A stretch of 64,000 bases of DNA, taken from positions 72,758 through 136,757 of the forward strand of contig PS015038.1 in NCBI GenBank assembly GCA_048213135.1, in the 5' to 3' direction. The notes under the pieces are model-generated. The model saw only the letters and a program-made list of their open reading frames with translations. It was not told where the DNA came from and did not search any database. The stretch is from Reclinomonas americana ATCC 50394 (Eukaryota). The position numbers and the translations under genes are program-made. Below, piece after piece: positions 2,682 through 61,800 of this stretch (within the stretch, counting starts at the first letter, position 1; every line of letters starts with the position of its first letter).

Positions 2682-4246
2682 CCTGGCGGCTTCAACTTTC
2701 CCCACCATCACCACCCGCACCACCATCAGCAGGCGGCGGCGCAAGCACATCGCCACCACGCGCACGAGATGGAACCGCGTCCGCGATCGTCATCTCGTGG
2801 TCATCATCAGTCGCACCACCGAGGCGACGATGTGGATTACACCTACTCGTCTGACGACTCGGAGCGGCGCCATGGTGATGAGGGTCGAGTGCACGACGAC
2901 TATTACGATCCGTACGACCCGTACGAGCGACGCGTACGCACCGCCCCGCCGGATCACACAGGTGAGCGGTGGGGGAGTTCGTGTTCGAATCCATTGTTGG
3001 TTGTCAGCTACTCACGCCCACTCACAGGTGACAGCCTTGGCTCACATCCACTCTCGTACCCAACGGCACTGGATGAGGGCGCACCACCGATGCCGCACTT
3101 GCAGGCTCAGCGGCGACACTCGTTGCGTGCTCTATTGTGTGTGTGTGTGTTTTTTGGCTTGATCGTGAAACACATGAGAGTAACGCGACGGTGCCTTGTG
3201 CAGTGGAGGAAAGCGACCCGCGTCGGCACAGCAGGCGCAGCACATTCAGCCACGCGGACCGCCGGTGCGATCACGCAACGCGGTACGTCGAGACATCTCA
3301 CTGCACCATTGGCCAGAGGTGTTGTCGCACTCGCTCACCAATCATCATCCAGGCTGAGGGCGAGCCACGGCCGCGTTCCGCCAGTCGCACACGCTCAAAG
3401 AAGTCCGCCTCTAAACGACCAGGCAGCAGCGGCAGCTCACGTCAGCGTGGATCATCATCGCCACAGCGTCAGCAACACAACGAGGTGGAGGACATGTATG
3501 CCGCGCTCAGGAGGAGAGCGGAGATGCCGTCGCCACGCAGTGGTCATCGGTTGGTGACGCCGGAGCACGTGGACGACCGGTCGGAGGGCGAGGAGGAATA
3601 CCACCACTATGAAGACGACATGGTGGATCGAGGGGTTTGTGTGCTTCAGTGCGGAAGCGATCGGACGTACTCATGTGACTGATGACCTCTTGTTTTTTTA
3701 CACACAGGTTGGTGTCTCTCGACTCGGCCCACCACGGCGGATTCCCACTCCCGGTCCTCAGTCGCAGCAGCGACCAGCCTCGGCGGGCCGGCGACCTCCG
3801 TCAGCGCAGAGCCGCCAGTCACGAGCACCGGGCACGCCAGGTTGCGTTTCTCTCTCACTCTCTCTCCTTCTCTGTTGTCTGCTCGCTCCTCACCCTGTTC
3901 GACAGGCTCGGCAAGTGTCATTCACGGCGGTTTGTCCTCACGACCACTCGGTAGCGCCGCCGCTGTGCGGTCCGTTTCCAGCAGCCGTCGGCGACACGAT
4001 CCGGTCTCCAGCTACCACCGCATGCAGGATGTGTGGAGTCGCGACCGTTTCCTGGTGCAGGATCAGCGTGGCCACAAGGAGCTGAGGTGGGCGGTGCGAT
4101 GCCAGATGTTGTCACAGCCGGCCGACGATTTTGCTGTTGCGTGGGATCAACCCTCACCACCACCGACAGCCGCACCAGTGCCGTCGGCGCGGAGACACAC
4201 TCCGTCGCAACCTCACCAGCTGCATCCGCGTGAGTGGGTGTCGTAG
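2682..4246 (+). CDS. HYLS1: HYLS1 (hydrolethalus/centriolar protein), 3' exons; the block is probably mis-oriented
   Basis: The last exon encodes HDPVSSYHRMQDVWSRDRFLVQDQRGHKELRWAVRCQML, matching the HYLS1 C-terminal motif (DPVxxY...W....KELRWxVRxQM). GT-AG introns link the upstream exons. Confidence 0.75.
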
Positions 4247-4519
4247 TAACCGAGTCGTTTGAGATCTAATTAGAATCCAGCTACTCCTTGTGTGTGTGTG
4301 CTCTTCCTCTCCTCCCTCAGNNNNNNNNNNNNNNNNNNNNNNNNNNNNNNNNNNNNNNNNNNNNNNNNNNNNNNNNNNNNNNNNNNNNNNNNNNNNNNNN
4401 NNNNNNNNNNNNNNNNNNNNNNNNNNNNNNNNNNNNNNNNNNNNNNNNNNNNNNNNNNNNNNNNNNNNNNNNNNNNNNNNNNNNNNNNNNNNNNNNNNNN
4501 NNNNNNNNNNNNNNNNNNN

Positions 4520-5071
4520 CACTGTACCTCCTGCATGTGGTGGTGATGTCGGTGCTCGGGCTGGTGGTGGTGATGGTGGTGGCGTCGTTGACCGTCGGCG
4601 GTCGCTCCCACCAACGGCTGAACGGACGCGGCCGCCTGCTTTGACTGCGTCTGCTGCGCCTGTTGCTGTTGCGCCTGCTGTTGTTGCTGTTGCTGTTGCT
4701 GCTGTTGCGCCAGCAGGAGCTGTGCTTGCTGCTGCTGTTGCTGCAACAGCTGTTGCGCCTGCTGTTGCTGTTGCGCCTGCTGCTGCTGTTGTTGTTGCTG
4801 TTGTTGCTGCTGCTGTTCAATCATGGCCTTCTGTTGCGCTTCGTGCGACGCGACCTGAGCGCGCAGCTCGTCGATGAACGCCTCCAGCTGTGCACCATCA
4901 ACAACGCCAAAGGAGAGGGGGAGGAGAGAGGGGGTGTTGGGACGATTTCTCGCGCCATGGCCAACGCGAAACGCGACAACGACGCAACGACATGCTCTGG
5001 CACGTGATCGTAGCCCAGATCGCGCAGCTGCTCGATCACGTCCTCACGGCGGATCTCGAGCGATGAGTTCA
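4520..5071 (-). CDS. HYLS1: HYLS1 5' exons (N-terminal helix plus poly-Q), gap-bounded
   Basis: Spliced translation (M)NSSLEIRREDVIEQLRDLGYDHVPEHV/LEAFIDELRAQ resembles the HYLS1 N-terminus. It ends at a phase-0 donor that is compatible with the phase-0 acceptor at 2681. Confidence 0.6.
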
Positions 5072-5532
5072 NNNNNNNNNNNNNNNNNNNNNNNNNNNNN
5101 NNNNNNNNNNNNNNNNNNNNNNNNNNNNNNNNNNNNNNNNNNNNNNNNNNNNNNNNNNNNNNNNNNNNNNNNNNNNNNNNNNNNNNNNNNNNNNNNNNNN
5201 NNNNNNNNNNNNNNNNNNNNNNNNNNNNNNNNNNNNNNNNNNNNNNNNNNNNNNNNNNNNNNNNNNNNNNNNNNNNNNNNNNNNNNNNNNNNNNNNNNNN
5301 NNNNNNNNNNNNNNNNNNNNNNNNNNNNNNNNNNNNNNNNNNNNNNNNNNNNNNNNNNNNNNNNNNNNNNNNNNNNNNNNNNNNNNNNNNNNNNNNNNNN
5401 NNNNNNNNNNNNNNNNNNNNNNNNNTCGGGAACGGTGCTTTTCTCTCTCCTCTCACACTCGAAAAAAATGAGAACCAACTAGCCGTTTCTAACCGTTGCA
5501 GGTCCAGAATCTGGTGATTGTGGAGTAAAGCC

Positions 5533-5945: not shown

Positions 5946-7816
5946 TCACCTCCGAATGCGACGTTTGCGGGGTCGCGGAGCGGATGGCATCGCACCGCCG
6001 GCGGCGGCGGCGGCCGCTGCAGCGGCTGCAGCTCCGGCCGAGCGACGTCGCGGAAACAGACGAATGGGAACGCCCTCCAACTCGAACTCGTCGCGAATGG
6101 CGTTGGAGAGGAACTTGGTGGCCGACTCGGGGAATTCATCTGCCCCCAGATAGAAGACGGCAAAGGTCGGTGGTCTTGCCGTCACTTGCGTCACGTATTG
6201 CACGTGCAGGCCACTCTGTGCCAGTGGTCGCTCCACCAGCAGCGCACGAATGAATCGATTCAGTGGTGCGGTGGCGATGCGCTTGTTCCATTTGTCATAC
6301 GTGCGCACCACCGTGTCCATCAGCGACTGTGTGCCAGAGTGCGCAAGGCCACTCAGCGGTACCACCGGCACTCCGCGTGCCTGCACACGATCCAATCGCT
6401 CTCTCACGTACTTGAACACTCGTTCGCGATCGGAGGACTCCTGCAGCAGGTCCCACTTGCTGACGCCAACCACCAGTGCCCGACCCTCTTCCAGCACCTG
6501 ACGTATGAGCGTCAACTCCTCACGAGTCAGCACCTCATGCGCCTCCGTCAACAGCACCACCACATTGGCAAAATGGATCGCACGCAGTGCATCCTGGCGA
6601 GACTGCGTGTCCAACTGCGTGCCCATGGTCTGCGTAATGATTCGCCGACGCAGACCGGCCGTGTCCACCAGCAACAGCTCGCGCGATCCGTACCGGCAAC
6701 GCAGCTGCACTGCGTCGCGTGTCACACCCGGCTGTGCGCCCGTGGCCACGCGCGAGAACCCGAGAAGGGCGTTCACCAGCGTGCTCTGTAGGAGAACGGG
6801 GAAGTGAGATATCATGCAAAAGTCGCAAACACACACTCATGCACACACACATACACGCACACACCTTGCCGGCGTTTGGTCGCCCGATAATGGCGAGACG
6901 CAGCAAGTCCTCCTTCTCCGCCACGGGCAGCACGGTCTTGCGCGATGGTGGTCGCTGCATGATGGCCAGCGTTTCCGCACTGGTGCCCATTGCCGCGTGG
7001 TAGGCCTCGAAGTGTGGTCGCACGGCATCGGCGAGCGCTGCGAAGCCAAAGCCAGTCTCTGCGCTCACCTCGGCCGGTTCGTAGTCTCGGCGCAGCATGA
7101 CACGCGCCACGTCGTTGTCATCGTACGATTCGGTGCCGGTGTCGCACTTGTTGAAGACGAGCTCGTACGGCACCGTCTGACTGCGCTGCGCCAACCACTT
7201 GCCAATGTGGAACTCGGAGGGCGTCAAACCCTCGCGAATGTCGGCCACCAGCAGCACCAGGTTCGACGCACGGATGGCGTCCTGCACTTGGCTCTCGAGT
7301 GAGGTCTATACGAGAACGGTGAGAGAGTGGTACGCGCATCAAGAGCACGCATGCATGCATGCACGCAACAATGTCGTCGGCACCCGGTGCGTCAATCACG
7401 TGGAAACGCATGTTGCCGAGTTGCGCCACATCAGCTTGCCAGTCACGTGTGGTGCCTGAGCACACAGGCCATGCATGGTGAGACTGAAGACACAGGCAGA
7501 GAGAGAAAGAGAGAGAGAGGCGACCAACCGGGCGTGTTGTTCACAATCGCATGCTGTGCGCCAACCAGGCGGTTAAAGATGGTGCTCTTGCCGACATTGG
7601 GTCGCCCCACAAGGCACACCGTAAAGTCCTTCGGTTGTACAACCTGCGCCCACACGGATCGCGGGATGAGCAATTTCGTACACGGAGTGAAGAAAGAGAG
7701 AGAGAGAAAGCTGGATGCACCTCCAGCAGCGGCCTTGTGGATGCGGGTGGAGCAGGCAGACCACCTGAGGAGAACAGACGTGACACGCACAGCTGCAGAC
7801 GTGCTCTCCACAGCAT
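5946..7816 (-). CDS. engA: Der/EngA double GTPase, organellar (probably mitochondrial) ribosome biogenesis
   Basis: Two G domains: [16 protein letters not shown] and GRPNAGKS/DTAG/SKWD. The C-terminal KH-like region reads [12 protein letters not shown]...F.LEGVPIRL. The Arg-rich N-terminus looks like a presequence. Confidence 0.92.
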
Positions 7817-7869: not shown

Positions 7870-8871
7870 ATGAAACGCCGAGCGGGTATCGCCGGCCTCA
7901 CACGAAAGCAACAGACAGAGGTGTGCTGCCGGTGCCTCTCTCCGTCTCCCTTGTCCACTTTCTCTCACACACGCTGACGAGCAGGAAAAGTTCAAGCGCG
8001 TGGGCGATGAGCTGGCCACCAGTCAGCGCACGCAGGTGAGAACCGTGCCTGTGACTCCATCGCAGTGTACATGCCCACCCACTCGCTCTTGCTGTGCGCG
8101 CGTCAGATGCTCGAGCAAATGTCGTTCCTCAAGGGCAAGCTGGAGGAGTTTGCCGATCGCCACCGTGACGAGATTGCCGGCAACCCCGAGCTGCGTCGGC
8201 ACTTTACCAAGATGTGCCAGCGCATTGGTGTGGATCCACTGGCCTGTTGCGTGGCATGACGAAAGAGGCGCTCTTTCACACCCATCACTCACTGCCCTGG
8301 GCGTGATCAGCGAAAAAGGGCTTCTGGGCCGAGTTGTTGGGCGTCGGCGACTTTTACTACGAGGTGGCGGTGCGTGCTGCCGAGGTGTGTATGCACACTC
8401 GTGTCGACAATGGCGGCCTGATGGATCTCGACGAGCTGGTGGACACGCTCAATCGACGCCGCTCACGAACGCAGCCAGAGGTTGTCTCTCTCTCTCTTCT
8501 GCATTGTCTCCTTTGCCACGCTGATGATCTCTCGGGGGTAGGTGGCGCGTCACGACGTGAAGCGGGCGATTGAGAAGCTGCGCGTGCTGGGCGGCGGTCT
8601 GCGCCTGCTCAAGATGGGCAAGCAGCACCACGGACGCACGCTGGTGCAGTCGGTGCCGCAGGAGCTGAACGTGGATCACCAGGCGCTGCTGCAACTGGCG
8701 GAGGAGCGCGGCTTCTTCACCATGACGCAGGTGCGCGAGCGATTGCGGTGGGATGTGGAGCGCACGCGACAGGCGCTGGAGCTGTTGATGCAGTCGGAGA
8801 TGGTGTGGGTGGACGCGCAGGCGGCAGAGGAGGAGCAGTACTGGTTCTCGTGCTTCTTCACGTTTTCATGA
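7870..8871 (+). CDS. SNF8: ESCRT-II subunit Vps22/SNF8
   Basis: [10 protein letters not shown]...[44 protein letters not shown]...LVQSVP.ELN.D...WVD.QA..E..YWF, over 5 exons. Confidence 0.95.
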
Positions 8872-8968
8872 TTAAAAAAAAAAGAAGAAGTGGCAAAAAA
8901 GTGATGCGGTCAGGCCGACGAGGCAGGAGTTGGTCCCACCCCTCCTCAGTGCGTTTTCTTCGCGACCT

Positions 8969-9387
8969 ATGACACTGCCGGCTTTTGTTTGCTGCGAATA
9001 CGCCCTCAACCGGTACACCGACTTCAAAGATGACGACTACTTGCGTAGCCTGTGTGCCACGCACGGCGCGAAGCCGAGGGACCACAGACCTGCGTCGCTT
9101 CCGCATGACGCGGTCGACCATCTAGTGCGACACCCGCAAAGGCACACGTCGTAGTCGGGTATGGGGGCTCACAACCCACGGCAACCTTCCACACATCACG
9201 AGTGGGCACCTTGTCGCAGATGCTTACAGAGACTCGCCACATCTCCCCGACTGGAGAGCATGCACGCGCGCTGCGCCTCTTACATGCGCGACGCCACTGG
9301 TGCATTGCTGGCTTGTGGGATCGTGATGTGGAAATTGTTTCGCGCCGAATCATCTTGGAGGAATGCATGTCATGGGAGGAGGAGTGA
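8969..9387 (+). CDS. Hypothetical small two-exon protein
   Basis: ORF MTLPAFVCCEY...VDHL joins in phase 0 through a GT-AG intron (about 9125-9219) to MLTETRH...SWEEE*. No recognisable motif. Confidence 0.3.
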
Positions 9388-9696
9388 GTTGCGTGCTGGC
9401 CAGGTGTTAACGAGTGATCATGATGGTGGGGAAGGCGGTGCTTGCTGGTGGAGAGAGCACAGTGGCCAACATGACTTGATTGCATTTGCTCGATGACTCA
9501 TCATGCCATCGACTTGTTCATCCAGCGCGTGTGGTGAGTGCACGCCTGCTCCCCTCCTGTGCAGTCAGTCTGAGTGAGAGTGAGAGAGGAGCAAGCAGCA
9601 ACGAGTGCTATGTCTGTCTGTGTTGGGGCGTGTCTTGTGTTGGCTCGTGCACATTCACATCAACAGCCTCGCTCACTCACGCACACACAGAAAAAA

Positions 9697-13027: not shown

Positions 13028-13139
13028 ATGAGCCGGGCTGCAGAACATCATGCGTCTGCTTCGCCTTTTACTAAGCTAGACCAGTGGATTGCGGCCTATT
13101 TGAGCTCGCATCACGATTTTTCTGGGGCGTAAAGCCCTC
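13028..13139 (+). ncRNA. U5: U5 spliceosomal snRNA
   Basis: Invariant loop 1 GCCTTTTAC (13063-13071) is closed by the stem GTCTGCTT/AAGCTAGAC. Outer stems are GGGCTGCAG/TTGCGGCCT and GAGC/GCTC. A CCAGTGGA internal-loop motif, an Sm-like site GATTTTTCTG (about 13115-13124) and a 3' hairpin GGGC-GTAAA-GCCC follow. Confidence 0.9.
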
Positions 13140-21400: not shown

Positions 21401-21670
21401 TTTCGATTTCTCAGTGGCAGCAAGCGACCAGTGCACGTGCAGCTGGACAGCTCGCCGCTTACCTCACCACGCACCGCTGGCGTGGGCGGCAATTCACCGA
21501 GAAGTCCCACCAACAATGCTCAGTTCCACCTGCAACATCAGGCGCGAGCGAGGGGCAGTGGTGGAGTCCAGTCGGTCCGCTCGCCCAACTCTGTGCATCA
21601 CCCCGCGTCAAGAGGTTCGGGAAGACCACAACAGCCACGTGCCGGCACTGTGGTTGTCGACTTGCAGTGA
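18493..21670 (+). CDS. Coiled-coil protein with a low-complexity C-terminus, function unknown
   Basis: ATG|GTACGT first exon, then a chain of in-frame exons with heptad-like E/L/R composition, then G-, Q- and S-rich exons. Confidence 0.6.
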
Positions 21671-46641: not shown

Positions 46642-49634
46642 ATGATGGTGAGATGCGGCAACATGCTCCCCCCTCTCTGTCTCTCTGTTCTCTCACTCTC
46701 GTTCTCGCAGCGCCACCGCGCAGAGCAGTCGACTCACTCGACAGCCACCAGCGTGCAACAGCACGATGTTGTTGCGCAACTGCATTTGCAATGACGCAAG
46801 TTCGTTCACCACATTGACTCTCGACACTTGGGTGAGTGCAGGTGGCCAGCGGCAAGCAGGAGCCACCTCGCAACCCTCCTCCTCCCCCGCCCACCTCACA
46901 GTACCGTCTGACTGCGCGACTGGTGCTGCTGAGCATTGCGCTGTCGTATGCGGCGGCCTTTCTGTCACTCTACTCGCAACTGCCGGGACTGTACCATCGT
47001 ACGGGCCTCACACCAGTGGAGTCGTACATGGAACGTGTGCGACAGGAGTATCCGCTGAAAGGAGCAGCGGCCAAGACGGCGGCCACGATGCGATTTGGAG
47101 TGTTGCCGACGGTGTTGTGGTTCAGTGAGAGTGTGTTTCACATGGACGTGGACTCAATGCTCGATGTGCTGTGCCTCGTCGGTGTTGCGTAGCCACCTTC
47201 CACTGCAGCCGCGCCTCAGACATGAGAGATACTGAGTCTTGTTATGTTTTCCTCGTCGTCAGGCGGCGCTGGCGTTCTTGGTGGCCATCGACGTGGGACC
47301 CAGCATGCTGTGGTTCACGCTCATGTGGGTGGCCTATCAGTCGCTGTATGCCGTCGGGCAACGCTTCTTGTCGTTCCAGTGGGATATCTTATTGTTGGAG
47401 GCCGGATTCCTGGCCATTTTGCTGGCACCTCTGCCGCTGGTGCCAACCATCCGCAAGTGGCGTGGTCTGCCGCCGGCGGAACCCTCCAATACGTCGCTCA
47501 TCTTGGTTCGCTGGCTCCTCTTTCGGCTGATGTATGCCAGTGGTGTGGTGCGTTGCGTCGACGCGCATGTTTGCAGTCGACCGCATGATGCTCACCAACA
47601 ACACTTGTCGCCCAGGTCAAACTCACCAGCGAGTGCCCGACGTGGTGGGGACTGACGGCCACCAATTATCACCACGAGGTGAAGAATTGTCGTCGACCCA
47701 CACACATACAACAACTCACTCATGCCTCCGCACAGACTCAATGCCTGCCGACACCACTCGCGTGGGTCTGTCCTCATTTTCATTCCCACATTCACCAGCA
47801 CACTGTGCACTAACTGTGCGCTCTCCCATGGCACAGTACTTTCACTTCCTGCCCAACTGGTGGCATGAGGTGGAGGTGGCGGGCACGTTTGTCATCGAGA
47901 CGATATTGCCCTTCCTCTTCTTCTCGCCCTTCCGGCTGCACCGCATCGTCGCCGGCCTCGCGCAGATTGCGCTCATGGTGGTCATTGCCTTGTCGGGCAA
48001 CTACAACTTTTTCAATCTCCTGTTGCGTCTGTCACATCTCGTGCGCTACTTCCAAAGTGTGCTGATTGCGAGCGTGCGCAGCACGGCCGGCCTGAGCATC
48101 AGTTGCCTCGACGACGACTTCCTCTCACTCGTAGTGTGGCGTCGTGACCCCGTTAATTATCCTGCGCGCCTACCCAGCAAGCAGAAGAAGAAGACTTCCT
48201 CCGTCGGCACCTCGTTCGTCGCCTGGTTGCTGCTGGTGCTTTTCGTTGGCGCCACTGGCTACTTTGGTTTCCGGGTGCAGTGGCTGCCAGAGAAGCATGT
48301 GCCGCTACATCTGGAGCTCGCCATCGATTCCGCCGGGCTCTACGATTTTATGTGGTGGTCGTTGCCGGCGGGCGTGATTGTCGGCGCACTGGCTCTTTTC
48401 TTTGCGGTGCGGCGCGATGCACTGCGTGCCGTGTACGACTCGGACAAGGAGCCCGAGTCGCTGTCGCTGTCTGGCAAGTCACCCACCGCCGCCGACAAGG
48501 TGCGTGTAGATGCATGCACCTCAGCATATTGTTCACCGTCGCCCATGTTCTCGCCACACAGTCATCCGTGTCGTGCTGCACGTACATGTCAGTTGTGATG
48601 GCGCTGCTGGCAGTGGTGGTGATTGTGCTGGTGGCGCTCGCCGTGTTCACCGTCTCGCTCCCGGCGTTGTATGTGGTGCATTCAAAGGCGGCTCAGGAGC
48701 AGCTGCCGCCAGTGTTGACGCGGGCGCATTCGCAACTGAGCAACGTGCCAATTGCGCGCAGTGGTGCGTGTGCTCCACAGTCGTCCGCCACACTCCCCCA
48801 CCCTCCCTCACATCCTTTCTAATATATTCGCTGCAGTGCTGTCGTACTACGGATACGGTTTGTTCCGCAGCATGACCACCAGCCGCCCGGAGGTCGTCAT
48901 GGAGGGCACGCGCAAAGCGAAACCAACAGAGAGCGATTGGATTGAGTACGACTTTTACTAGTTGCGTTTATGTGCGCAGTTAATTCTCTCTCTCTCTCCC
49001 CCTCGCACCGCCTTCTCACACCTCGCGCAGCAAGGCTGGCAACGTGACGCAGGCGCCCCGCTGGAACGCCCCGCATCAGCCTCGTCTCGACTGGCAGATG
49101 TGGTTCGCCGCCCTCAGCTCGTACCAGAGCGAGTCGTGGATTGTGAACCTCGCCGCCAAGCTCCTCGACAACGATCCCCACGTGCTGGCACTGATGAGCG
49201 GCCACAATCCGTTCGCCGACAAGCCACCGCTGTATGTGCGCGCCACTCTGTACGATTATCGGTTCGCGGCGCCACCTGCCGACGTGCATCCGTTCTTGGC
49301 TCGCGGTGGACCGTGGTGGACGCGAACCAAGGAGAGGGAGTACTTGCCGGCCCTGGAGAAGAACAATGGTGCGGTGAAAGGATACAATGTCGCCCTTTTG
49401 CTGAGCACTGTCAGCGAACTCACCGATCGACGGCTATTCGCACACACAGGATCTCTTGTGCGGTTCCTCGCCGACAACAAGTGGGATATCAAGCCGCTGC
49501 GTCGCGAGGAGCTGACGCCGGCCGCTCAAGTGGTTGCGCAGATTCGCGAACAGCCGAACCTGGTGTGTTGGATCTGTTGTGCGGCCGCGGTGATTTATGC
49601 GATCAAGTGGCTGCTCTTCCGGTGCGGACCATGA
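46642..49634 (+). CDS. LMF2: Lipase maturation factor family ER membrane protein
   Basis: [92 protein letters not shown]. Confidence 0.93.
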
Positions 49635-49819: not shown

Positions 49820-52800
49820 TCACGCACCACTCGAACTGGACAACGTGTGCAAAATTGATGATGCAGCGCGACTGACGCTAGCATCGGAGGAGCGCGAGGC
49901 CTTCACCAGTGGCGCCAGGCCGTTGTTCTCCATGATTTCCAGCGACGCCGTGGCGGCAAAGAGCATCAGCAGCTTCAACGCCAGTGTGATGACCTCCGCA
50001 TCGTCGTGCGTATCGAGAATACGCACAGTGGTCACCACGCCGCCCTCCAGTCGGATGACTGACAGATTTTCCTCTGCGAGCACACACGCAGAGTCAGCAT
50101 TCGTGTGTATGCGCGCAAAATCGAAAGAAACAATGTGTGGAAGGCGTACCATTGGTGGCCAGTGTTGACAGCGCCTTCAGGGCAGCCGACAGCACACGCA
50201 GATCCTGCGCATTGTCCAGCTGGCGCAGCAGAGCCGGGATGGCGCCACGCTTGCGAAGATCCACTTTGCCTGCGCCAAGTGAGGTAACGATTGAGTCAAC
50301 AACTCTTCCGGCCAGCTCACAGTCGACTTGAGACACACCAGACGGCACGCCCGCCAGATTCTGCAGCGTCGAGATGGCGTACAGCTTGGCGTCCATGTCC
50401 TCGTCGTTCATGCAGCGCATAATGTCGGCAGTGCCACCAATAACAATCACTTGCGCCGCATTCGTCTCTGCGCGAGCACCCAAGAGGTGTGAGAGATCGA
50501 GCAACACCCACGCATCAACAGCGCGACGTGTCAACTCACCGTTGAGCGTCGCATTGTACAAGCAGCGCAGTCCTGCACGCCAGTAGAGAGTGAGCAAATG
50601 ACACGAAAAAGAAGGCAAGGCGACCGATCGGTGTGTGTGTGGCTCTCACCATATCTCTTGGTCTCGGCATCGGTCGAGCTGATGACACGCACCATGGGCT
50701 CCAGACCGCCGAGCTCACGAATGGCCTCCTTGTGTTGCTTGTTGATACTGATGCACACAAATGAAGCACAGGGTGAGTGACTCAAGACGCACTCGACATT
50801 AGCAAAGACGACAGTGAGTGACGCACGACATGTTGATGAGGCAGCCAATGGCAGCACGCTTCGTCTCCACATCCTCGTGGTCGAGCAGGCGCAACACCGC
50901 GCGCAAACCGTCATTGTCGAACACGATGGTGCGGTTCTGGGCGTTGATGGACAGGATGCTGAGAGCGCGCATGGCGTACTTGGTGGTCGCCGCGTCACCA
51001 CTGCATGGACAAGAGAGAAACACGGAACATTTGAGTCACCGAGGCGGACGCACGCACGCACTCCCCACAACAACAAAGTGCAATGGTACGTGCCTGTAGA
51101 GCGCGCGCAACAACAGGGGCACGCCACCGAGGCCAGCAATCTCCACCTTGGACTCGTCGTCGAATGAGAGGTTGCGCANNNNNNNNNNNNNNNNNNNNGG
51201 CGACAGGACCTCTGCGCGTTGACGCGTGTTTTTTTCAGTCACCAACAACCACAAACGAGCGAGAGAGAGGAAGGGAGATGCACGAACCGCCAAGTTGATC
51301 AGTGAGGTGCGTGCGCAGCGAGGCCACCACCTGCTCCACACCGGCATGCACCAAGAACTCGGTCTTGGCCTGCTCGATGGAGCACAAGTTGGCCAGGCAG
51401 ACGGCGGCGTTGATTTGTGAGTCAGCCTGCCATCGATAAACACATATTGAGTTGAAAACTAGAGGCAAACAAACAATTCACGCCCCGTCGTGCTCGCACA
51501 AACCTCACGTGCGGCCAGCAACTCGATGAGGACCTTGACGAGGCCGAGCTTGACCATCTCCGGTCGCGCATCCGCCTCGCTGCTCAGCTCGGCCACAATG
51601 GCCAACAACTGCGCACGCAGCATCTGCATCGCCTCGGCCGTGGAGGTGACGTGGTGCAGGAAGAGTCGAACGATGCGCGCGACAAAGTTCATCTTCTTGA
51701 TCAGCTGCACCGTCTCCTCGAAGCGCAGCAACTGCGACACACAGCTGAGGCTCTCCTTCACCGTGTCGGGATCGCGGGAGGCGACAGCCTGCAAAATGAC
51801 CGGCAGGCCATTCAAGCGCATCACATCCTCCGAGAACGTGTCGTGTGCGCAGAAGAAGGTCAGCGACTTGGCGGCGAATCGCGCCGTCACCGTGTCGTTG
51901 CTGGACACCGCATTGAGCATCACCGGGAGGCCACCGAGACGCAAGAACTCGGTCAGGTTCTCCTCTGCAACCACCGGCGACGTGAGACCTCACACACTTT
52001 TCGACAGAAAAGTTCTCAGGCACAGCACACATGACGCACGGTTGATGAGCAAGTTGGAAATGGTGCGCGTGGCATAGCGACGCGTCTCCACGTCGGACAG
52101 CTCGAGCACGTGCAGCAGGGCGGGGAGACCGCCATGTCCGCGAATCTCAATCTTGTTCTTGGCTGCGCGACACAGATCAGACACCAGCGAAGAAACGGAA
52201 GCAAGAGGAGCGACACATGAACGTACCATTGACGGACAGGTTGATCAGAGTGCCCGCAGCGCTGCGTCGCACGTCAATGTCGGGCGAGTGCAGGCACTCA
52301 ATCACCTCCGGAATGCCGCCGGCTGTGCGAATCTCCACACGGTTCTCGGCTGTACCACCAATCATCGTGAGAGGGTGCGACACATCACGACGAAACAAAT
52401 GGCAGCGTGTGGACGAAACTGTTGATCGACAGGACCATCAGTGCTCGAATGGCACCCTTCTTCACTTCCAGATCGTCGGAGCGCAGGCAGTCGACCAGCA
52501 CCGGAATACCACCGGCTTCACGGATTTGCACCTTGGTGTTGGCTGCACACTCACGGGTCAGCCACTTTCCCATTTTTTCGCGCCCCAACAAACCACCCCA
52601 CTCTGGCTCACCTGCAAAACTGAGCGAGCGCAACGTCTTGACGGCATCACGTCGCAGCAGCTCGTCGTTGCGGAAGCCTGCCAGCTGGATGAGGTACGGC
52701 ACCACGCCCCGGCCGACGACGAGTCGTTCGTTCTCGTCGTTGACAGAGAGCGACCGAATCAGTGCCATGGCAGCGAGTCCGACCTCTCGGTTCGGCGGGT

Positions 52801-55800
52801 CAATCATCACGTCCACAGTCGGGTCCAGGCCGCCCGCCTTGCGAATGTCCTCTTCCGCACCCTCGTCCATGCACAGCACATTGAGGATGCGCAGCGTGTG
52901 CTTCTGCACCTCCGGTCCGGTGTGCTGGATGAGCGCGGTGAGACGGCGCAGGGCATTGGCCTGGCGAACCTCCGATCGCACCGCCGCTGTTCGATTGTAC
53001 ACACGCGTGTAAGCAGGGGAGCACCATCAATCAGCATCANNNNNNNNNNNNNNNNNNNNAAATTGGTCACGCTCAAAGTTGGTTGCCGAGCCGACACGAT
53101 CAAGCTCCTCCTGCAACTGCAGCACCTTGATGGCCGCATCGTCGAGCTGCGACAGCCGTCCTGTCAGCTTCTCCACCTCAGATCTACGTAAAGGAGAGTG
53201 GAAATCGTCGTGAGGGCAGGTGTCAAAAATCACTGGCGCAACTGCGTCAGTCAGCACACGCAACTTGAGTGCATCTCGTTCCTGGAACATGGCGTCGATC
53301 TGCTCCGGCGAGTAGCGTGCCGCCTTGCGCGTGCTGTTCTTCAGCTGCTGCATCTCGGCATCACGCGTCACCAGCTCACGGCGTGCATCCTCCAAGTCCT
53401 TGCGTGTGTCGCGCAACTCTGCCAGCACCGCCTGGTACGACTGCTCGGCGTGCGTGCTCTGCTTGAACAGCTCGCGCTCGTAGTCGTGGATCTTGTCGGC
53501 GGCGGCACGGCCGAGGCTCAGGTCGGCGGTTTCCTGGAGGCTCTTGTTCTGCCGCTCCAGTCGCTCCACCGTGGCCTCGAGTTCGGCGACACGAGCGAGA
53601 CGTGCGCTCATCGCATTGCGCTCGTTCTCAGCACGGGTACGCAGCTCCTCGGACACGGCCAACTTGCTGGCCACGTCGGCCACCTCCGAGTCGGCGTGGC
53701 GCGAAATCTTACGAATCTCGTTCTCCAGCGCCGTGATGCGGTCGTTTGCCTCGCGATAATCCTTCATCGGCACAGTGCGATCGCGCTCCTCGGCCTCCGT
53801 CTGCTGACCCATGGTGTTGCGACGGCGAGTGCCCTCCTCACCGCGTCGCAGCTGAGCCTCGGCATTCTGCAATGCCACGGTGCTGCACAACAGTGTCAGA
53901 TGCCAGAATGACGCAAGAACGGCGCCCGACTTCTACAAAAAAAGACTCACCGATCCTGCAGCTCCTCCTGCAACCGCTGCACCTCCTCGCGCATCTGCCG
54001 CGACTGGTTCTCAAAGTGCAGACCCTGCTTCTCCAACTCCTCGGTGAGCGTGTAGACCTTCATCGAGGCCTCGGTGCCCTCCTCCTTGGCGTTGGTGCGC
54101 AGAATGTGCAGCACATTCTCCAAGTCGCTGATCTTTTGCGTCAGAGCCAGATTCTCCAGGTTGAGGGTGTGCAGCGCACGATCACTGTTGGCGCGCTGCA
54201 GCTCGGCAAACTCGGCTTGCTCCTGCACACGGGCCTCCTTGTCGTGGGCATGCTGCTGCGCCGCCTCCTTGGCGGCGGCTTGCAGCTCGCGAACTTGCTC
54301 TTGCAGATCGTCCAGGTGCTGATGGTAGAACTTGCCCTGCTGTGTGAGCTCCTGCTGGACCTCGCGCAACTTGAACTCGGTGGCAGCCTGCTCGGCCTCG
54401 GCGCGCTTGCGCGCGTCGTGCATCACCGTCAGCTCCTTGCGCATACGGTCGAGCGCCTCGCCCTCCGTCTTGGCACTCAGGAAATCGGCCATCAGGCGCT
54501 CGTGGTCGCTGATGGCACGATCACGGTCGCCCTGCGTACCCGACACCTGCCGCTGCAGCGACTCAATCTCCGCGCGCAGGCGGTTCGCCTCCTGCGTGGA
54601 GGCCTTGTCGGCCACCACCAACTCGTGCTCCAACGTCTTGACGCGCTCCTCGGCCAGACGTGACCACTCCGCGTGCTGCGACTGTGCATCGCGCAACGCC
54701 GACTGCGACTTGAACAAGTCGCGCTCGGTTTGAGCCAGCTGCGCTTGCACTTGCTGCAAGAGTCGACGAGTGTTGCGCTCCGAGTCTGTCAGCGTCGCCT
54801 CCGATTCCTCGGCCAACTCACGCACTTGGCCGATCTGACGCTGCACGTCGCGCTCCGTGGCCGCCAACTCCACCTCCAGCACGCCCACACGACGGGCCGC
54901 AGCCGAAGCCTCGTCCTCTGCCTCCTTTCGCACGCGCTCGGCCTTGACCACGCGTTTGCGCTCCTCGGCCAGTTCGTCTTGCGTGCTCTTGAGCTGTTTG
55001 TGAATGAAAGTGTTGTAAGCAGCGAGGCAATCAGGTTGCTTTTGACAAACACACAGCACGTACCATTTGCTCCAGCGCCTGCACAGCGGCACGCGCCGAC
55101 GCCACGTCGCCGAGATTGTGCTTCAGCGAGTCAACCTTGTGCTGCAACTCCGACACCGAGGACTCGCGCGAGGCAGCCTCGACTCGGTTGGCCTTTTCGA
55201 GAATCTCGACTTCGCGCTCCAAATGGCGCACCCGCTCGACGCCAGCATGCTCGCGCTCCACGGCCGAACGCAAGTCACCCCGCAGCTTGTCGCGCTCCTG
55301 GGTCGCCAGTGCCAGTGCCTCGCGCGCCCCAATCAAATCGGCATCGGCCTTGCGTAGCTGGGCACGCAGCTCCGGCACAGTGTCTGCGGTGCGACGGGCA
55401 CCGTCCAGCTCCGACCGCAGCTCCTCCACCGACTGAGTGAGATTCGACTGCACCGCCAATCCTCGATCGGCCACCAAGTCACGCTCGGAGCGCAACAGCG
55501 ACAACTCCTCCTCCAGACGCAGAATGTAATCTGCGGCCTCCCGCTCGCGCTCCAGGCACTCCAGACGCTGACCCTCGGACGAGTCCTTCAACGCCTGCAT
55601 GTGCATCAACTGACCCTTCAACGAGGCAATGGTCTGGAAGTGCTCCTTCTCGCGCTCGGTCGACTGCTTGGCGTTGGCGTCACCGGCCACCACCACGCCA
55701 AGTTCGCGGCGCAGCATATCCAGTTCCTCTGCGTGCGAATGTCAGACGAATTGTGCTGACAATCTCATGCAGTGTGTGGACGGACGCACCTTGCAGCCCA

Positions 55801-58800
55801 GCAGCCTCGCTNNNNNNNNNNNNNNNNNNNNCGCATCCTGCGTGCGTGCCAACTCCTGCTGCAACTCGTTCGCCGTCTTCTCCACCGCAGTGAGCGCGGC
55901 ACGATGACCCTCACCGGCCTCCACCGATGAGCGCATCTGCGCGACCGCCGTCGTCAGATCGGAGACCTGCCGCTCGCCGCCGCTCAGTGAGGCGTCAAGC
56001 ACCGACAACTCCCGCTGCAGCGCCATGGCACGCTCGCGTGCCGCCTCCTCGCTGGCCGCGGTGCTGGCCAGACGCCGCTCCAACAGCTCCGCCTGTCGCT
56101 TGAGGCCAGACACCTGTTGTTCACTGGCGTCGCGCTGCCGTTTGAGCTCCTCCACCGAGCTCTCCAGCAACGCCACACGATGCTCCGCACTGCGCTTGTC
56201 GACATTCAGTTCGTCGATACGGCGCTGGATGGCCTCGGCAGGCTCCAGGCGCAGGCGCTCGTTCTCGGCCGCCAACAGCGCCAGCTCCTTGCGCAGCTGC
56301 GAGGTGACCTGCTGTGCGGCTTCGTCGACCTCGCGCAAGGCCTGCACTTCGGCCTGCAGACGCATGATCTGCGAGTGCTGGTCGTGGGCGAGCTTGTCCT
56401 TGGCAATCAGCGACTCGCTGTACGAGCGCAGATTGTGCTGCAGCGACTCGAGCGACTGCGACGCCGCGTCGGCACCCAGTGCTTCGCCGCGAAGCGAGCT
56501 CAGCTGTTGTTGCAGGGTCTGCAGCGCACCGCTCTGCTGCTGCAACTCGGCCTCGGCGTTCTTCTCCAACAACTGCAACTCGACCTCCAGTTGGCGCTTG
56601 CGCGCCGCACCCTGCCGCTCGCGCTCCTCCAGCACCGTCAAGTCGTCACGCAGACGCACGACCTTGGCGCGTTCCGACGCCAGCAAGTCGGCCTGCGACT
56701 CGACCTTGCGCACCAATTTCTGCAACACGACATTGTTTCAGCAGCCGCAGCAGTGACACACGGACGGAGGCGAGTGAGGGAAAACAAACCTCGAGCTTGG
56801 TACCCGGATCGTCGGTCGGGGACACCAACGTGGCCGGGATGGCCTTGAAATGGCGCTGCCACTGGTCGATTTCCGCACGCAAGCGGACACCCTCGCGCTC
56901 CTTCTCGTGGCTCAGCTTGGACAGCTCCTCGCGCAGCAACTCCGCCTCCTCTGCCAACGCACGGTTGTAGGCCACGGCCGACACCTCCATGTCGGTGGCT
57001 TCGGCGAGACGCCTCTCCTTCTTGGTGCGGTCCAACGATGCAGAGGCCACGTTGCGCTCCATGTCGGTCAGTGCCTTGCGCAGCGCCGCAGCATCGTCCT
57101 TGGCCGCCTGCAGCTCCTTCTCCACACCGCCGCTGTGTTGCAGACGATTCTGCAGCTCCGCCAGCTGCTCCTCCAGCTGTGCAATCTGCGTGTTCTTCGT
57201 CGCCGTCACATGCTCAGTCTCCAGTGCGGCCAGGCGGACCTCCTGCTCCAGCAGTCGCATCCGCTCGGCCGACGTGTTCTCACGCTCCGCGCCGCTGGCG
57301 AGTTGCGCGCGCAGCTCGTCAATCATTCGCTGCTTGTCCGTGACATCGCGCTCCAGACGGCCACGTTCCTGCACAAGCCGACGACAACAATGTGANNNNN
57401 NNNNNNNNNNNNNNNNNNNNNNNNNNNNNNNNNNNNNNNNNNNNNNNNNNNNNNNNNNNNNNNNNNNNNNNNNNNNNNNNNNNNNNNNNNNNNNNNNNNN
57501 NNNNNNNNNNNNNNNNNNNNNNNNNNNNNNNNNNNNNNNNNNNNNNNNNNNNNNNNNNNNNNNNNNNNNNNNNNNNNNNNNNNNNNNNNNNNNNNNNNNN
57601 NNNNNNNNNNNNNNNNNNNNNNNNNNNNNNNNNNNNNNNNNNNNNNNNNNNNNNNNNNNNGGAGCAGAACGCACAGCGACTGGAGCAAGTGGCGGCTCTG
57701 CGTGGCGAGATGAGCGGCAGCGCGCGTGAGGCCACCACCATGGCCGAGTTGCAGCAGTTGTTTGAGCAACAAAAGGCGGAGAGTCAGCAGACCGCCGCCG
57801 CCATGCATCGGTTCGTCACATCAGTCTCGTCCCTCTCTCTTTTTTGTTTTTTCGTCACTGATGATTTCCCTTCCTATACTCCACAGTCTGCAACGCGATC
57901 TGCTGGCGAGCCGTGCCCGCGAGGCCGAGTTGGCCGAGCGTGAGGAGACGGCCACCAAGCGTACGCTGGAGTTGCAGCGCGAGTTGTTGCTGCACGAGCG
58001 TGCGGCCACCTCACTGGACTCGGCGCTGGCCACGGCATCCTCGTCGCTGCAGCAGCAGCGCGCCGATGCCGCAGCGACCTCGGTCGACCGTGACGCGCAT
58101 GCACAGCGCCTGCGTGAGGCGGAAGCTCGTGTTGCGACACTGGAGGAGGAATCGCGACGCCTGAATGCCGCGCAAAGCAGAATGCAACGGCAGTTGACGG
58201 AGGCGTCGGATCGCGAGAGTTCGGCGGAGCGCAAACTGGCCATCATGGAGGACGAGTTGCGACTGGCGCAGGAGGGTGCAGCCGTGGCACTTCGAGAGCA
58301 CGCGGCTGTGGAAGTGAGTCTGCACGAACGCATCAGTGCGCTCACCCGCGACATGGAGGCGGCGCGTGTCAGTGCCTCCGGCGAACTCGGCGCGCAGCTG
58401 AACAGCAAGGATCGCGAGCTGCAGCAAGTGGTGCGGCAGCTGGCGGACGCGAAGCGAGCCACCACCCGTCTGGAGGAGGAGCGCGAGTCAGCGCGCGACC
58501 GTGAGCGAGTGGCACGCGACCGCATTCTCAAGCTCGAGGAGGAGCTGCGTCTGCGGGAGCGCCACTTGACCTCGTACGAGGGCGAGTTGCAGGGCCAGGC
58601 CGTGGCCGCCGCCAGTGCCGCCGGCGAGCGTCGTGGTGCAGCCGAGACCCGTGCGACCCTGGAGCAGGAGCTGGCCAACAAGGAGCGCGCTCTCGGTGTG
58701 CAATCTGCCGAGGTGGAGAGGTTACGCAAGCAACTCAAGGATGCTACCACACGCCTGGCCGGTGTGGAGGAGGAGGCTCGTGACGCCACAAAGCAGGTGT

Positions 58801-61800
58801 GTGTCTCTCCATTTTTTTCGTGTATCATTGGCGACTGAATCTTATTCTGGCNNNNNNNNNNNNNNNNNNNNCCCACTGTCTTTTGCGCGTCGAGCTGCGC
58901 AGAGTTGTTGTAGTGCTCCAACTGCGCCAGTTCGTGCTCCAGCTGTCGGATCTTGTCGGATCCCTGCCGTTCGCGCTCGCGCACCTCCTTCAACTCGTCG
59001 TACGCATTGGTGAGCTCGCCTTGCAACCGGTACACACTCTTGCGAGCCGTGCTCAGCTCTTGCGACATGCGTTCCATTCTGTATGGGCGCGGTCAGTACC
59101 AGCCGCAACAGGACAAGAGCGAGCGAGGAAAGAAAAGGGGGGGGGGGGCACGAAACTGCGAATCAAAGGTCGAGGACGGCGCAGCAAACACCACGGCCTC
59201 TCGTGGCGGCTCCGGACGCAGGTCGTCGGCAGCACGTTGCATGCGACGCAGCTCGGCATTCAGCGTGGACACCTGTGGCATGCGCGTGAGCACACCTGTC
59301 TGTTTTTTTTGGAAAGGAGAAACACACACACCTTGTCGACCGCAGAGGCCTCACGCTCCTGCAACTGGGCGCAGTCCTTCTTCAGCTGCGACACCTCGCG
59401 ATCGAGCTTGAACACCTGCGTGTGTTTGCGTGGCGGCACAGCATAGCGTTGGTTGTCGAGTCACTTGCACAACAACACAACACAGAGCGACTGACGCACC
59501 TCCTCCTTCAGGTGGCGAATCTCCACATCCTTGGCGCGCAGCTCATTGGCGTGCACCTCGTCGGACGAGGCATCCGAGCGCATGCGCGCAATCTGCGAAT
59601 CACGCTCGCGCAAGTTCTTCTCCAGGCGGGCTGCGCAGTCGAGATGACAGTCGTGAGGACCATTGAAACAAACGAACACATCAGAGCTCTGTGAACGTGC
59701 TTGCTCAACGCACCAAGTTCCTGCTGCTGTCGCGACATGTCATTTTCCATGCGCTTCAGCTTGTCCACCAGCCGCTCGTTCTCGTCCTGCAAATGCGTGC
59801 TCGACTCCTCCATCACGGACAGTCGCTGCCGCAGCTCATTGTCGCCAGTGACGCGCTCCGTGCCGCTCGATGGTCGCACGCGGAGCGAGAGCAGCGAGGC
59901 CGGGGCTGCCGCGGTCACAGCAGATGAGCCCGAAGCGGTGCTGCGGGTGGCCGACGACGGTCGGGTCGGCACGTTCTCCTTGCTCAGTTGCCTCGCAATC
60001 TCCTCACGCTCACGGCTCACCGCCTACACGCCGCGCCAATAGGTGAGTCAGCAGGCAGAATGGAGCGGGCTGAACAATGTCATGCACGCACCTCCTTGCG
60101 CTCCAGTGTGGCCTTCTCGCGCGCCTCCATGGCAGTCTCCATGTTGGCACGGAAAGCGTCAATCGCTCGGCGTCGCTCCGTGTCGTTGTCGCTCATCAGA
60201 GGCGCCAACGCGGCCGGGAGAGCCTCACGGACCTCGTTGCGCTTGCCGCCGCTGCGGTCCTCCTACACGAACACGCGTGTGAGAGACTTGCGCGCGCTTG
60301 TGCGATAAAGGTAGAAATTTTCCTTACCGTGCACTTGATCAGCGTCTCCACGGCCATCTTTCGCACCTCCACGTCCTCGTCCTCGGCAAACTCCGCAATC
60401 GCCTTGAGCGACTGCTCGCGCGTCCTCTCCACCATCATGTTTCCGTCGACACACATGTGGTACACGCCCTTGATGGCGTGGCGCTTGGTCTTGACGTCGC
60501 GTGAGACCAGCGACTTGAGAATGGCACTGCCGGCACCGAGAGCCATGACAGCGGCGCGGTTCGCCTCCTCCATCACCATAAACGAGAGTGCGCCCATGGC
60601 GTACCTGGCGATCGACGCAGCGAATGAGCAACAAGCAAGCAAGCAAACAGCGACAAGAGGAAAAGTGCAGCTCACCGACGAGCCTCCGGCTCACGGCCCT
60701 TGAAGCACTCCAACACAATCTGCACACCGTCAACTGACGGCACGGCCGCATTGCTGCACCAGACAACAGGGTGAGTATGTGTGGCGAAGGGCGAAGGCCT
60801 CGCCCTTCTTTCTCAAACGCAGACTCAACTTGGCCGGATCCTGGCACATGTGCATGGTTGTGGCCAGAGCGTAACAACGAGCCTCCAAATCCGAGTCCTT
60901 GGTCAGTCGCAGCAACACCGGCAGCGCACCGATGCGTCCAAGTGTGGCACGCGTGCGCTCCCCCAGGGACGCATTGCACAGACACCGCAGACCGAACCGC
61001 CGACTCTCCACATCTTGCGTGTTGCTCACACAAAACAAAATCTCCTCGAGACCACCTGCGACACGCGCGCGCCGTGATGAACAACCAGCGAGGAGGAGTG
61101 GGAAACAGGAAGGAGAAAAAATGATGATTGCCGAACCTTCCTGGATCAACTGCGACTCGTTGTCTTCATCGCTGTCAGCACAAACACACAGAGGTGTCAG
61201 AGAGCACTTGGTGAAGAAAATTGCACATGTTGTCACCCCAACGCACCTGGCCAGGTTGATCAAACTGCACAACACGCGAGCCATTTGAGTTGATGAGCAC
61301 ACACAGGAAGAGGAGGAGGAGGAGGAGGAAGAGGAAGGGGAAGCAACGCACCTCGCAAGCGCATAGCGCTGCGTTTCTGGATCGTCCACCTTCAAGCATT
61401 CGATGACATTGCGAATGCATCCAAGCGGGCGGAACTGCATCTTATTCTGTGGAAGCGGGTGTCAGCCACCGTCAGGAAGCACACAATAAAAGGGAGCGCG
61501 CGGCACGCAACTTCGACGTTGATGGACAGGTTGCACACCTGCACATCGAAAAAGTGTGAGAAACACAAACGGGAGAGAAACTGTGAAACTGCGACACGCA
61601 CTGTTCGCAGAGCATCACGGCGAGTGCGAATGTCTTCAGCGAGGAGACACTGCACAATGAGCGGGAGACCGCCCTGCAGGCGGATTTCCACCTTGTTGAT
61701 ATCGTGGATGCTCAGGTTACACAGCGAGCTGCGACACCGACAAATCAGACACAAGAGAGTACGAGGAAAGAGGCAAAGCATGTGCGCACCGCAACGCGAC

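Follow-up and report, generated by a model that had tools for sequence, protein, structure and literature searches.

Introduction

The stretch of DNA considered here comes from Reclinomonas americana ATCC 50394 (assembly GCA_048213135.1, contig PS015038.1, positions 72,758 to 136,757) and raises the question of whether a genome can make routine use of a second class of 5' splice site, or donor, in which the conserved bases lie one position further inside the intron than in the common local donor. The stretch is called the window in the following, always at its full length of 64 kb. It is eukaryotic and contains many introns and dense genes; its G+C content is 52-64%, and with 17 runs of N it represents a gapped draft. 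An earlier inspection of the letters and open reading frames, referred to below as the sequence-only reading, had listed 17 introns that begin with the heptamer GTTGCGT and had suggested that a donor class with the G at position +6 may be routinely used. All 17 coordinates were found to carry GTTGCGT on the strand given.

The analysis presented here supports the existence of the class. It accounts for 25 of the 122 confidently predicted introns, 18 of which start with exactly GTTGCGT, and it is very probably real, as judged from donor statistics and from colinearity with known proteins. The further statement, that this donor is bound by the U1 small nuclear RNA (snRNA) in a register shifted by one nucleotide (nt), is held together with the existence of the class with moderate confidence only. 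The evidence for the donor word and its junctions is described first, followed by the base composition at the exon edge, the possible modes of recognition and a comparison to known systems.

A Second Donor Word at Intron Starts

GTTGCGT is present in 29 copies on the two strands of the window. In 100 dinucleotide shuffles a mean of 15.66 copies was obtained (standard deviation 3.72, maximum 24), and none of the 100 reached 29. After each of the listed copies, 56-101 nt of CT- or GT-rich sequence follow, which end with CAG or TAG. Runs of (GT)n or (CT)n are found in many introns of the window.

Introns were predicted with a self-trained gene finder, a hidden Markov model (HMM) in which 3-periodic Markov coding models, seeded with seven Pfam-supported open reading frames, were combined with a model of intron content, a prior on length and no splice-site rule other than GT..AG. 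In the donor-blind form of this model, the donor information was limited to GT; a second version of it additionally contained a trained acceptor matrix with the consensus G-C-A-G and C at -3. For the trained form, a two-class donor model was learned from the output of the HMM itself and was then fed back. In knock-outs, a class site was forbidden under the donor-blind model, and the resulting cost is given in score units.

Already in the donor-blind runs, GTTGCGT was the most frequent donor heptamer. Without the acceptor matrix, 125 introns with a median length of 70 nt were predicted, 11 of them starting with GTTGCGT, and 10 of the 17 listed sites were recovered. With the acceptor matrix, the numbers were 142 introns, 11 GTTGCGT donors and 11 listed sites, and the hexamer GTGCGT was used 12 times. 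By chance, about one GTTGCGT donor would be expected in 142 introns, as estimated by hand from the 21 copies among 3140 sense GTs. When a mixture model was fitted to the 142 blind donors by expectation maximisation from random starts, it arrived at one component of the form nnG|GTnnGT with about 80 sites and a second one of the form nnn|GTT[G/T]CGT with about 25 sites. The trained HMM predicted 138 introns, which include all 17 listed sites and two additional ones at 41908 and 29373, both on the minus strand. Its donors comprise 19 GTTGCGT, 6 GTTTCGT, 3 GTTGAGT and 21 GTGCGT.

For comparisons between the classes, a confident set of 122 introns was used, with 25 donors of the shifted class and 78 canonical ones. 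GTTGCGT accounts for 18 of these 122 donors. Of the 742 GTs inside introns only 1 belongs to this word, and of the 2276 exon-sense GTs only 2; its enrichment at donors over intron-internal GTs corresponds to an odds ratio of 128 (p = 3e-15). In the sequence-only reading it had been considered that the heptamer might be no more frequent at intron starts than expected from the TG/CG-rich intron composition; the counts show the opposite. When the 29 copies are placed on the gene models, 19 are predicted donors, 2 lie in exons in sense orientation, 1 is intron-internal, 4 are antisense and 3 intergenic, which gives 19 donors among the 22 copies that have the same orientation as a gene model. In comparison, the hexamer GTGCGT serves as donor in 21 of its 129 copies.

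The word is also used with high specificity. None of the copies of the single-base variants GTCGCGT (26 copies), GTGGCGT (22), GTAGCGT (2), GTTGCGC (39), GTTGCGA (14) and GTTGCGG (11) is a predicted donor, and zero donors were likewise obtained for each of GTTGCAT, GTTGCCT and GTTGCTT. Within the class, only positions +4 and +5 differ between members, two positions at which the canonical donors vary, too. Of the 9 copies of GTTTCGT, 6 are used as donors, and of the 7 copies of GTTGAGT, 3. Among these are the related forms already pointed out in the sequence-only reading, GTTGAGT at 30143 (minus strand) and GTTTCGT at 15969, 44285 and 26656 (the last on the minus strand), all of which are predicted donors.

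Knock-outs of 28 class sites under the donor-blind model lowered the score at 18 sites and raised it by at most 4.6 units at 8 sites, while the two sites 29373 and 48022 were unused even when forced. The donors chosen as a replacement after a knock-out are mostly devoid of a donor consensus, examples being GTCCCAAC, GTGTGGAT and GTCGCCGG. At the 6 to 7 listed sites that were missed by the donor-blind runs, nearby in-phase GTs without consensus were selected instead, such as GTACCGCA, GTGAACGT and GTCCCAAC.

Junctions Checked against Proteins and Repeats

The proteins used for the junction checks were retrieved with single-exon queries and are hence independent of the HMM. The most extensive comparison was obtained for an LMF1-like gene on the plus strand, which contains three GTTGCGT introns, at 47184-47262 (phase 0, 79 nt), 48022-48081 (phase 2, 60 nt) and 48961-49030 (phase 2, 70 nt). 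In an alignment with 14 LMF homologs, all three junctions are colinear with zero indels, where the statement for 47184 refers to those of the 14 homologs that cover the region. The protein reads DVLCLVG|AALAF across the junction at 47184 and EYDFY-Y-KAGN across the one at 48961. The first of these introns was also predicted by the donor-blind HMM; the intron at 48022 is read through by that model because it is in frame and free of stop codons. The best protein match to the LMF exon has 55-57% identity, and a metagenome scan with this exon yielded 80 loci, all with at most 54% identity, among which a close relative was not found.

In the SNF8 gene, the intron at 8246-8310 (plus strand, phase 1, 65 nt) was predicted by the donor-blind HMM. 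In the alignment with human SNF8 (2zme_A), the match of the upstream exon reaches residue 81 and that of the downstream exon begins at residue 84, with two residues between them. On the SNF8 Pfam profile, 10 positions had seemed to be spanned by 5 residues, a shortfall of 5 that was resolved by the PDB alignments. A further GTTGCGT intron, which was not among the 17 listed ones, was identified in a GCP4-like gene at 41839-41908 (minus strand, phase 2, 70 nt). Here, the flanking exons match positions 94-178 and 182-217 of PF04130 (GCP_C_terminal), with three residues between the matches; a search with the GCP4 exon gave zero matches among longer proteins.

The preservation of frame and phase, which had been asserted for all listed introns, is thereby borne out by protein colinearity at 47184, 48022, 48961 and 8246. 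Among the gene names that had been assigned from the sequence, those of SNF8, LMF1 and GCP4 were verified by Pfam or PDB matches, and EngA fits the presence of two G1 motifs and a weak match to MMR_HSR1. HYLS1 was not confirmed; Pfam gave zero matches for the exons flanking 4988, as well as for the homeobox-like exons at 15969 and the emp24-like exons at 44285.

Repeated exons allowed a comparison within a single gene. The Arm-repeat gene at 51199-53039 (minus strand) contains three consecutive exons of 40 amino acids plus a split codon, all in phase 1, each of which corresponds to one 41-position Arm repeat. At the same position of the repeat, the donor is GTTTCGT in one unit (52350-52419, phase 1, 70 nt, knock-out cost 7.3) and GTACGT or GTGCGT in the neighbouring units. 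From the exon sequences, this looks like an exon-by-exon duplication of the repeat with donor words that differ by unit. In the gene for uL4/RPL4, the similarity of the exon ends with ..SALAASA directly before a GTTGAGT donor (30137-30143, minus strand), and the homologs go on with V/L/I-P. The acceptor lies inside an N gap, since the gene (30079-30548, minus strand) is interrupted by 565 N at 29514-30078. The identity of this exon to sequences from plants, oomycetes and Blastocystis and to transcripts is 73-87%.

When both intron ends are cut 1 nt further downstream, a stop codon is created at 48961, and at 8246 the S which is also present in human SNF8 is replaced by W. At these two junctions, cleavage appears to stay at the GU and not to move to the position that would be set by a shifted U1 register.

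Otherwise Ordinary Introns

Apart from the donor, the introns of the class do not stand out. All 25 confident members have GT..YAG ends, with phases 0, 1 and 2 represented 8, 9 and 8 times. The median length is 68 nt, compared to 68.5 nt for introns with canonical donors (Mann-Whitney p = 0.58). At the acceptor, C is present at -3 in 22 of 25 class introns and in 72 of 78 canonical ones, and the branch-like sequence CTRAY is found 8-50 nt from the 3' end in 8 of 25 and 27 of 80 introns, respectively. Judged by their ends, frame, length and 3' signals, the class members are probably major (U2-type) GT-AG introns.

Two other types of intron had to be considered. Introners resemble the class in that many introns share an identical start. 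In the class, however, the similarity ends after seven bases: in an all-against-all blastn comparison of the intron interiors, the matches were all of low complexity and no longer than 24 nt, of which 46 occurred in 600 ordered class pairs versus 791 in 6320 canonical pairs, and no excess within the class was found. An introner family was rejected on these grounds. The U12-type introns also provide a second, highly constrained donor word beside a degenerate major class. Their donor consensus is RTATCCTT. The donors of the class are not of this type, and its acceptors and lengths are like those of the other introns in the window, so this assignment was also rejected; a U12-type branch site was not searched for.

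The Exon Edge of the Shifted Donor

The two classes of donor differ at the last base of the exon. A G at -1 is present in 69 of 78 canonical donors (88%), but in only 3 of 25 donors of the class (12%; p = 2e-12) in the set from the trained model, which could be biased. In the donor-blind set, the corresponding numbers are 60 of 74 and 3 of 18 (p = 5e-7). When the class sites were scored with the matrix of the canonical donors, a value of +2.83 nats was obtained at an offset of +1, compared to -6.05, -7.76, -10.76, -16.15 and -4.71 nats at offsets of 0, -1, -2, +2 and +3. The flanking columns agree as well after a shift by one base: position -1 of the class (G 0.13) is similar to position -2 of the canonical donors (G 0.12), and position +8 of the class (G 0.46, A 0.06) to canonical position +7 (G 0.43, A 0.09). 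The T at +3 is invariant in the class, and GT[A/C/G]GCGT yielded zero donors.

The class N|GTT(G/T)(C/A)GT is the local donor G|GT(G/T)(C/A)GT, displaced by one base towards the interior of the intron. In this arrangement, the G at +1 takes the place of the exonic G at -1, a T takes the place of the canonical G at +1, and the conserved GT is located at +6/+7 rather than at +5/+6.

Recognition of the Shifted Donor

For the recognition of this donor, a mechanism in two steps is proposed. In the first step, U1 snRNA, the early reader of the 5' splice site, would pair with the class in a register shifted by +1. In the second step, the catalytic spliceosome with U6, U5 and Prp8 would still cut before the GU, so that the binding register and the cleavage site would be uncoupled by one nucleotide. 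While the donor sites, their enrichment, the junctions, the loss of the G at -1 and the offset of +1 were shown from the sequence of the window, the role of U1 and the hand-over to U6 are steps that we infer from them. The shifted register is favoured over a bulged one because the G at -1 is not kept and bases other than T are not tolerated at +3.

Several observations weigh against the class or against its recognition in a shifted register. With respect to the class, the Bayesian information criterion did not discriminate between a single donor class with background (4189) and two classes (4191) in a hand calculation on the 142 noisy blind sites; the donor class therefore rests on the other tests, namely the junctions, the specificity, the enrichment and the depletion of the G at -1. 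At 10 of 28 class sites, the difference between the forced and the knock-out score was zero or negative, and 6 of the 17 listed sites were picked only after training of the donor model. All junctions are based on gene models and protein colinearity, and a check by homology or repeats covers 8 junctions of the shifted class, at 4 of which the cut 1 nt downstream leaves the protein unchanged. The class frequencies refer to one 64-kb window and to gene models made for it, some of which are wrong. In the LMF1-like gene, for example, an HMM intron at 47679-47836 (plus strand, donor GTGAAGA) wrongly deletes some 10 residues which are conserved among those homologs that extend over this part of the gene, and the true junction there is a different one; likewise, long introns were drawn over the region of a U5 snRNA candidate.

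With respect to the register, the pairing energies pose the main difficulty. With the conventional U1 5' end AUACUUACCUG (Table 2, PMC4856993), the mean nearest-neighbour duplex energy is predicted to be -1.65 kcal/mol for the class compared to -6.77 kcal/mol for canonical donors, and the minimum-energy duplex of the class adopts the +1 register in 10 of 25 cases; the U1 sequence of the organism itself may differ. In addition, the two variable positions are occupied by GC in 18 of 25 class donors, compared to 22 of 78 canonical ones, and GC would not be selected by a conventional U1. Since the predicted pairing with a conventional U1 is close to nil, a plain shift does not explain the most specific donor word of the window.

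In an alternative explanation, GUUGCGU would be a strong or perfect match to its reader, which could be an altered U1 snRNA, for example with G-C at positions 5-6, a second U1 with the variant sequence ACGCAAC, or a guide RNA of another kind. The seven nearly invariant positions, together with the use of 19 of 22 sense copies as donors, resemble full complementarity to a guide. Of 16 hypothetical U1 variants at positions 5-6, the one with G-C was the best for both classes, with -9.35 kcal/mol for canonical donors and -7.0 kcal/mol for class duplexes, most of which took the +1 register, whereas a hypothetical U1 with an inserted A gave -9.9 kcal/mol for the class and -7.64 kcal/mol for canonical donors. 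GC is also the most common pair at +3/+4 of the canonical donors, and GTAAGT, the best donor of textbooks, is found in 6 copies over both strands, with zero predicted donors among them. These hypothetical energies are fits to the same data and are not independent evidence. Moreover, ACGCAAC followed by CC would still favour a G at -1, yet this base is depleted in the class.

The U1 5' end, with its near-universal ACUUAC, is among the most conserved RNA sequences of eukaryotes, and GC-rich genomes can have donors similar to GTGCGT with an ordinary U1. Both facts count against an altered U1, which is considered unlikely; on the basis of the hypothetical fits and the weak conventional pairing it nevertheless is a serious rival to the shifted register. 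More generally, it is possible, though rather unlikely, that 5' splice-site recognition has been rewired, either by a U1 departing from the near-universal ACUUACCU (e.g., with G-C at positions 5-6) or by a second U1 complementary to GUUGCGU. If so, in about one fifth of the introns the defining signal would lie entirely in the intron itself, the cut would be made one base 5' of the normal register, and the last exon base would be freed from selection.

An Rfam scan of the window at gathering scores gave zero matches, and U1, U2, U4 and U6 were not found in the 64 kb at gathering scores or in permissive scans. The sole spliceosomal RNA found is a candidate for U5 snRNA at 13029-13137 (plus strand; RF00020, 34.4 bits with a gathering score of 40), which is of full length and has an Sm-like AUUUUU and an intact loop 1 (CGCCUUUUACUAA) of the conventional type. 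At this locus, the HMM placed implausible introns of 350-500 nt.

In the sequence-only reading, the heptamer had been described as GTGCGT with an additional T at +3, which corresponds to a bulged register: U1 would pair normally with positions -1, +1 and +2, one U at +2/+3 would be bulged, and GCGU would pair as in GTGCGT. The removal of one T indeed converts GTTGCGT, GTTTCGT and GTTGAGT to GTGCGT, GTTCGT and GTGAGT, all of which are canonical donors in the window, and human sites with a validated +2/+3 bulge register are described in PMC4856993. However, a bulge would keep the G:C9 pair at -1, yet the G is depleted in the trained and in the donor-blind set alike. A bulged base at +3 could also vary, yet none of the copies with A, C or G at this position is a donor. 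Finally, the columns on the exon side match the canonical ones only after the one-base shift. The bulge is thus quite unlikely, and the description of the class as a canonical motif read one base downstream, which agrees with the rarity of G at -1, the invariant T at +3 and the fit of the matrix at +1, replaces the earlier one.

A modelling or composition artefact, in which the real junctions would be located at other nearby GTs and GTTGCGT would merely be frequent in TG/CG-rich introns, could draw on the sites that were left unpicked by the donor-blind model, on the forced scores at or below zero, including the two sites unused when forced, and on the partial circularity of the trained donor model. 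It is very improbable in view of the strong preference of the heptamer for donors over intron-internal and exon-sense GTs, its first rank in the blind runs, the poor consensus of most alternatives chosen after knock-outs, and the exact protein colinearity at 47184, 48022, 48961, 8246 and 41908. An assembly error, by which GTGCGT would have been miscalled as GTTGCGT in a homopolymer, would fit a gapped draft and introns that tolerate indels, but it would neither select donors (21 of 129 GTGCGT copies versus 19 of 29 for GTTGCGT) nor correlate with the exonic base at -1, and can practically be dismissed.

Comparison to Known Systems

The shifted register that is proposed for the class has a counterpart in humans, where it was described as a pairing of the 5' splice site with U1 in which all base pairs are displaced by one position (Roca and Krainer 2009, as summarised in PMC4856993). 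In PMC4856993, it appears as one of several noncanonical schemes for atypical sites. The class resembles the human +1 shifted register in the conserved G at +6 and apparently in the retention of cleavage at the GU, and it would also share the displacement of the pairs by one and the release of the -1 base from C9. Unlike in humans, where the register is an exception, the class makes up 25 of 122 confident introns and a single heptamer 18 of these. Furthermore, the human test oligonucleotide contains AAGUAU (Table 2, PMC4856993), whereas the class has GCGU as its core, for which only poor pairing with a conventional U1 is predicted. The human register has been studied experimentally; the class is known from sequence.

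In the human table of Tan et al. (2016, PMC4856993), the noncanonical sites predicted number 10,248, of which 68 (54 after curation) belong to the +2/+3 bulge register. Like these sites, the class has one U more between the GU and the block that pairs further downstream, and a G at +6. Unlike them, it does not keep the G at -1, contains T alone at +3 and comprises about one fifth of the introns. At a tandem donor of human STAT3, splice-site choice was found to be independent of the exact position of U1, and a noncanonical U6 register was proposed (PMC11162779). The uncoupling of the U1 binding site from cleavage would be common to both systems. However, STAT3 represents one regulated human tandem donor with sites 3 nt apart, whereas the class extends over many introns and has an offset of 1 nt.

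A search confined to one literature collection, with supplementary files excluded, for noncanonical registers in protists and for GTTGCGT or GUUGCGU gave no report of such a donor class, and the matches to the word were of the primer type only. Thus, a noncanonical U1 register as such is already known, and what appears to be new, going by the donors predicted here, is a fixed heptamer in about one fifth of the introns that lacks the G at -1.

If the junctions are confirmed by transcripts, then in about 1 in 5-6 introns the early recognition RNA would bind at one place and the spliceosome would cut at another, a situation for which the only human equivalents known are rare atypical sites. The window would then offer many parallel cases to study how U6, U5 and Prp8 fix the cleavage after U1 has left, and whether U1 has changed. 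As an evolutionary rationale, it is suggested that the last exon base is set free when the donor is entirely intronic, which would be reflected in the different frequencies of G at -1. For genome annotation, predictors with a single donor matrix will misplace the junctions of the class.

Individual Sites in the Window

Besides the introns in LMF1 and SNF8, three listed GTTGCGT introns were identified on the plus strand. Those at 3841-3905 (phase 1, 65 nt) and 33252-33333 (phase 1, 82 nt) were predicted by the donor-blind HMM, with knock-out costs of 12.2 and 4.5, respectively. The one at 21061-21120 (phase 1, 60 nt) was obtained with the trained HMM, and here the donor-blind model gives an advantage of 0.8 units to GTACCGCA, which lies in phase 9 nt upstream.

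The remaining ten listed introns are located on the minus strand. A weaker case is the one at 4888-4988 (phase 0, 101 nt, trained HMM), where the donor-blind model favours GTCCCAAC 45 nt downstream by 4.6 units. In the gene for the Der/EngA-like GTPase, the intron at 7306-7369 (phase 0, 64 nt) was predicted by the donor-blind HMM with the acceptor matrix, with a knock-out cost of 7.9. A CAP-Gly gene contains two of the introns: the one at 22468-22552 (phase 1, 85 nt) was predicted by the donor-blind HMM with a knock-out cost of 6.1, and the one at 23099-23158 (phase 1, 60 nt) by the trained HMM, with the donor-blind model favouring GTGAACGT 6 nt upstream by 1.2 units.

Three introns, all predicted by the donor-blind HMM, belong to a RhoGAP gene. 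They are located at 24331-24386 (phase 1, 56 nt), 27297-27360 (phase 0, 64 nt, knock-out cost 6.9) and, within the RhoGAP domain, at 28064-28131 (phase 2, 68 nt, knock-out cost 10.3), where the upstream exon ends at position 137 of the 148 in the RhoGAP profile. In the GCP4-like gene, a second GTTGCGT intron is present at 42357-42418 (phase 1, 62 nt); it was predicted by the donor-blind HMM with a knock-out cost of 4.5, and its downstream exon is without a Pfam match.

The last two listed introns were obtained with the trained HMM. For the one at 61447-61511 in an Arm-repeat gene (phase 0, 65 nt), the junction NLSINVE|NKMQF matches the pattern of the neighbouring Arm units. At the other one, at 53184-53264 in a coiled-coil gene (phase 2, 81 nt), the donor-blind model favours GTGATTTT by 1.6 units. 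Long coiled-coil gene models extend over 53060-58838 and are split by N gaps, with 53060-57395 modelled on the minus strand and 57661-58838 on the plus strand; the strand of these E/Q/L/A/R-rich models is uncertain.

Three GTTGCGT copies without a donor call, all on the plus strand, resemble further donors. At 3122-3203, a probable donor is followed after 82 nt by the acceptor GTGCAG, and its phase and acceptor are the same as those of the GTGTGTG donor used by the HMM at 3137. A second probable donor, suggested by its context, is found directly after an N gap at 37171-37241, with 71 nt to GTGCAG. The copy at 63458-63547 is a possible donor, which was used in the first blind run and was later displaced by a minus-strand model. 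The additional site of the trained HMM at 29367-29373 (minus strand), which would start an intron of 332 nt, is doubtful.

The GTTTCGT donors predicted by the donor-blind HMM include those of the introns at 15969-16033 (plus strand, phase 0, 65 nt), at 44285-44353 in an emp24-like gene model (plus strand, phase 0, 69 nt) and at 26601-26656 in the RhoGAP gene (minus strand, phase 0, 56 nt). Another GTTTCGT intron, at 59079-59156 (minus strand, phase 2, 78 nt), was identified by the trained HMM, as were the GTTGAGT introns at 21344-21414 (plus strand, phase 2, 71 nt) and, in an Arm-repeat gene, at 60754-60829 (minus strand, phase 2, 76 nt, knock-out cost 6.7).

Between the genes for SNF8 and a DEAD-box helicase, a candidate for the signal recognition particle RNA was found at 8899-9247 on the minus strand (RF00017, 54.4 bits with a gathering score of 70), which is of full length. 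A GTTGCGT copy at 9388-9394 (plus strand), which precedes the predicted start of the helicase gene by about 300 nt, could be the donor of an intron in the 5' untranslated region.

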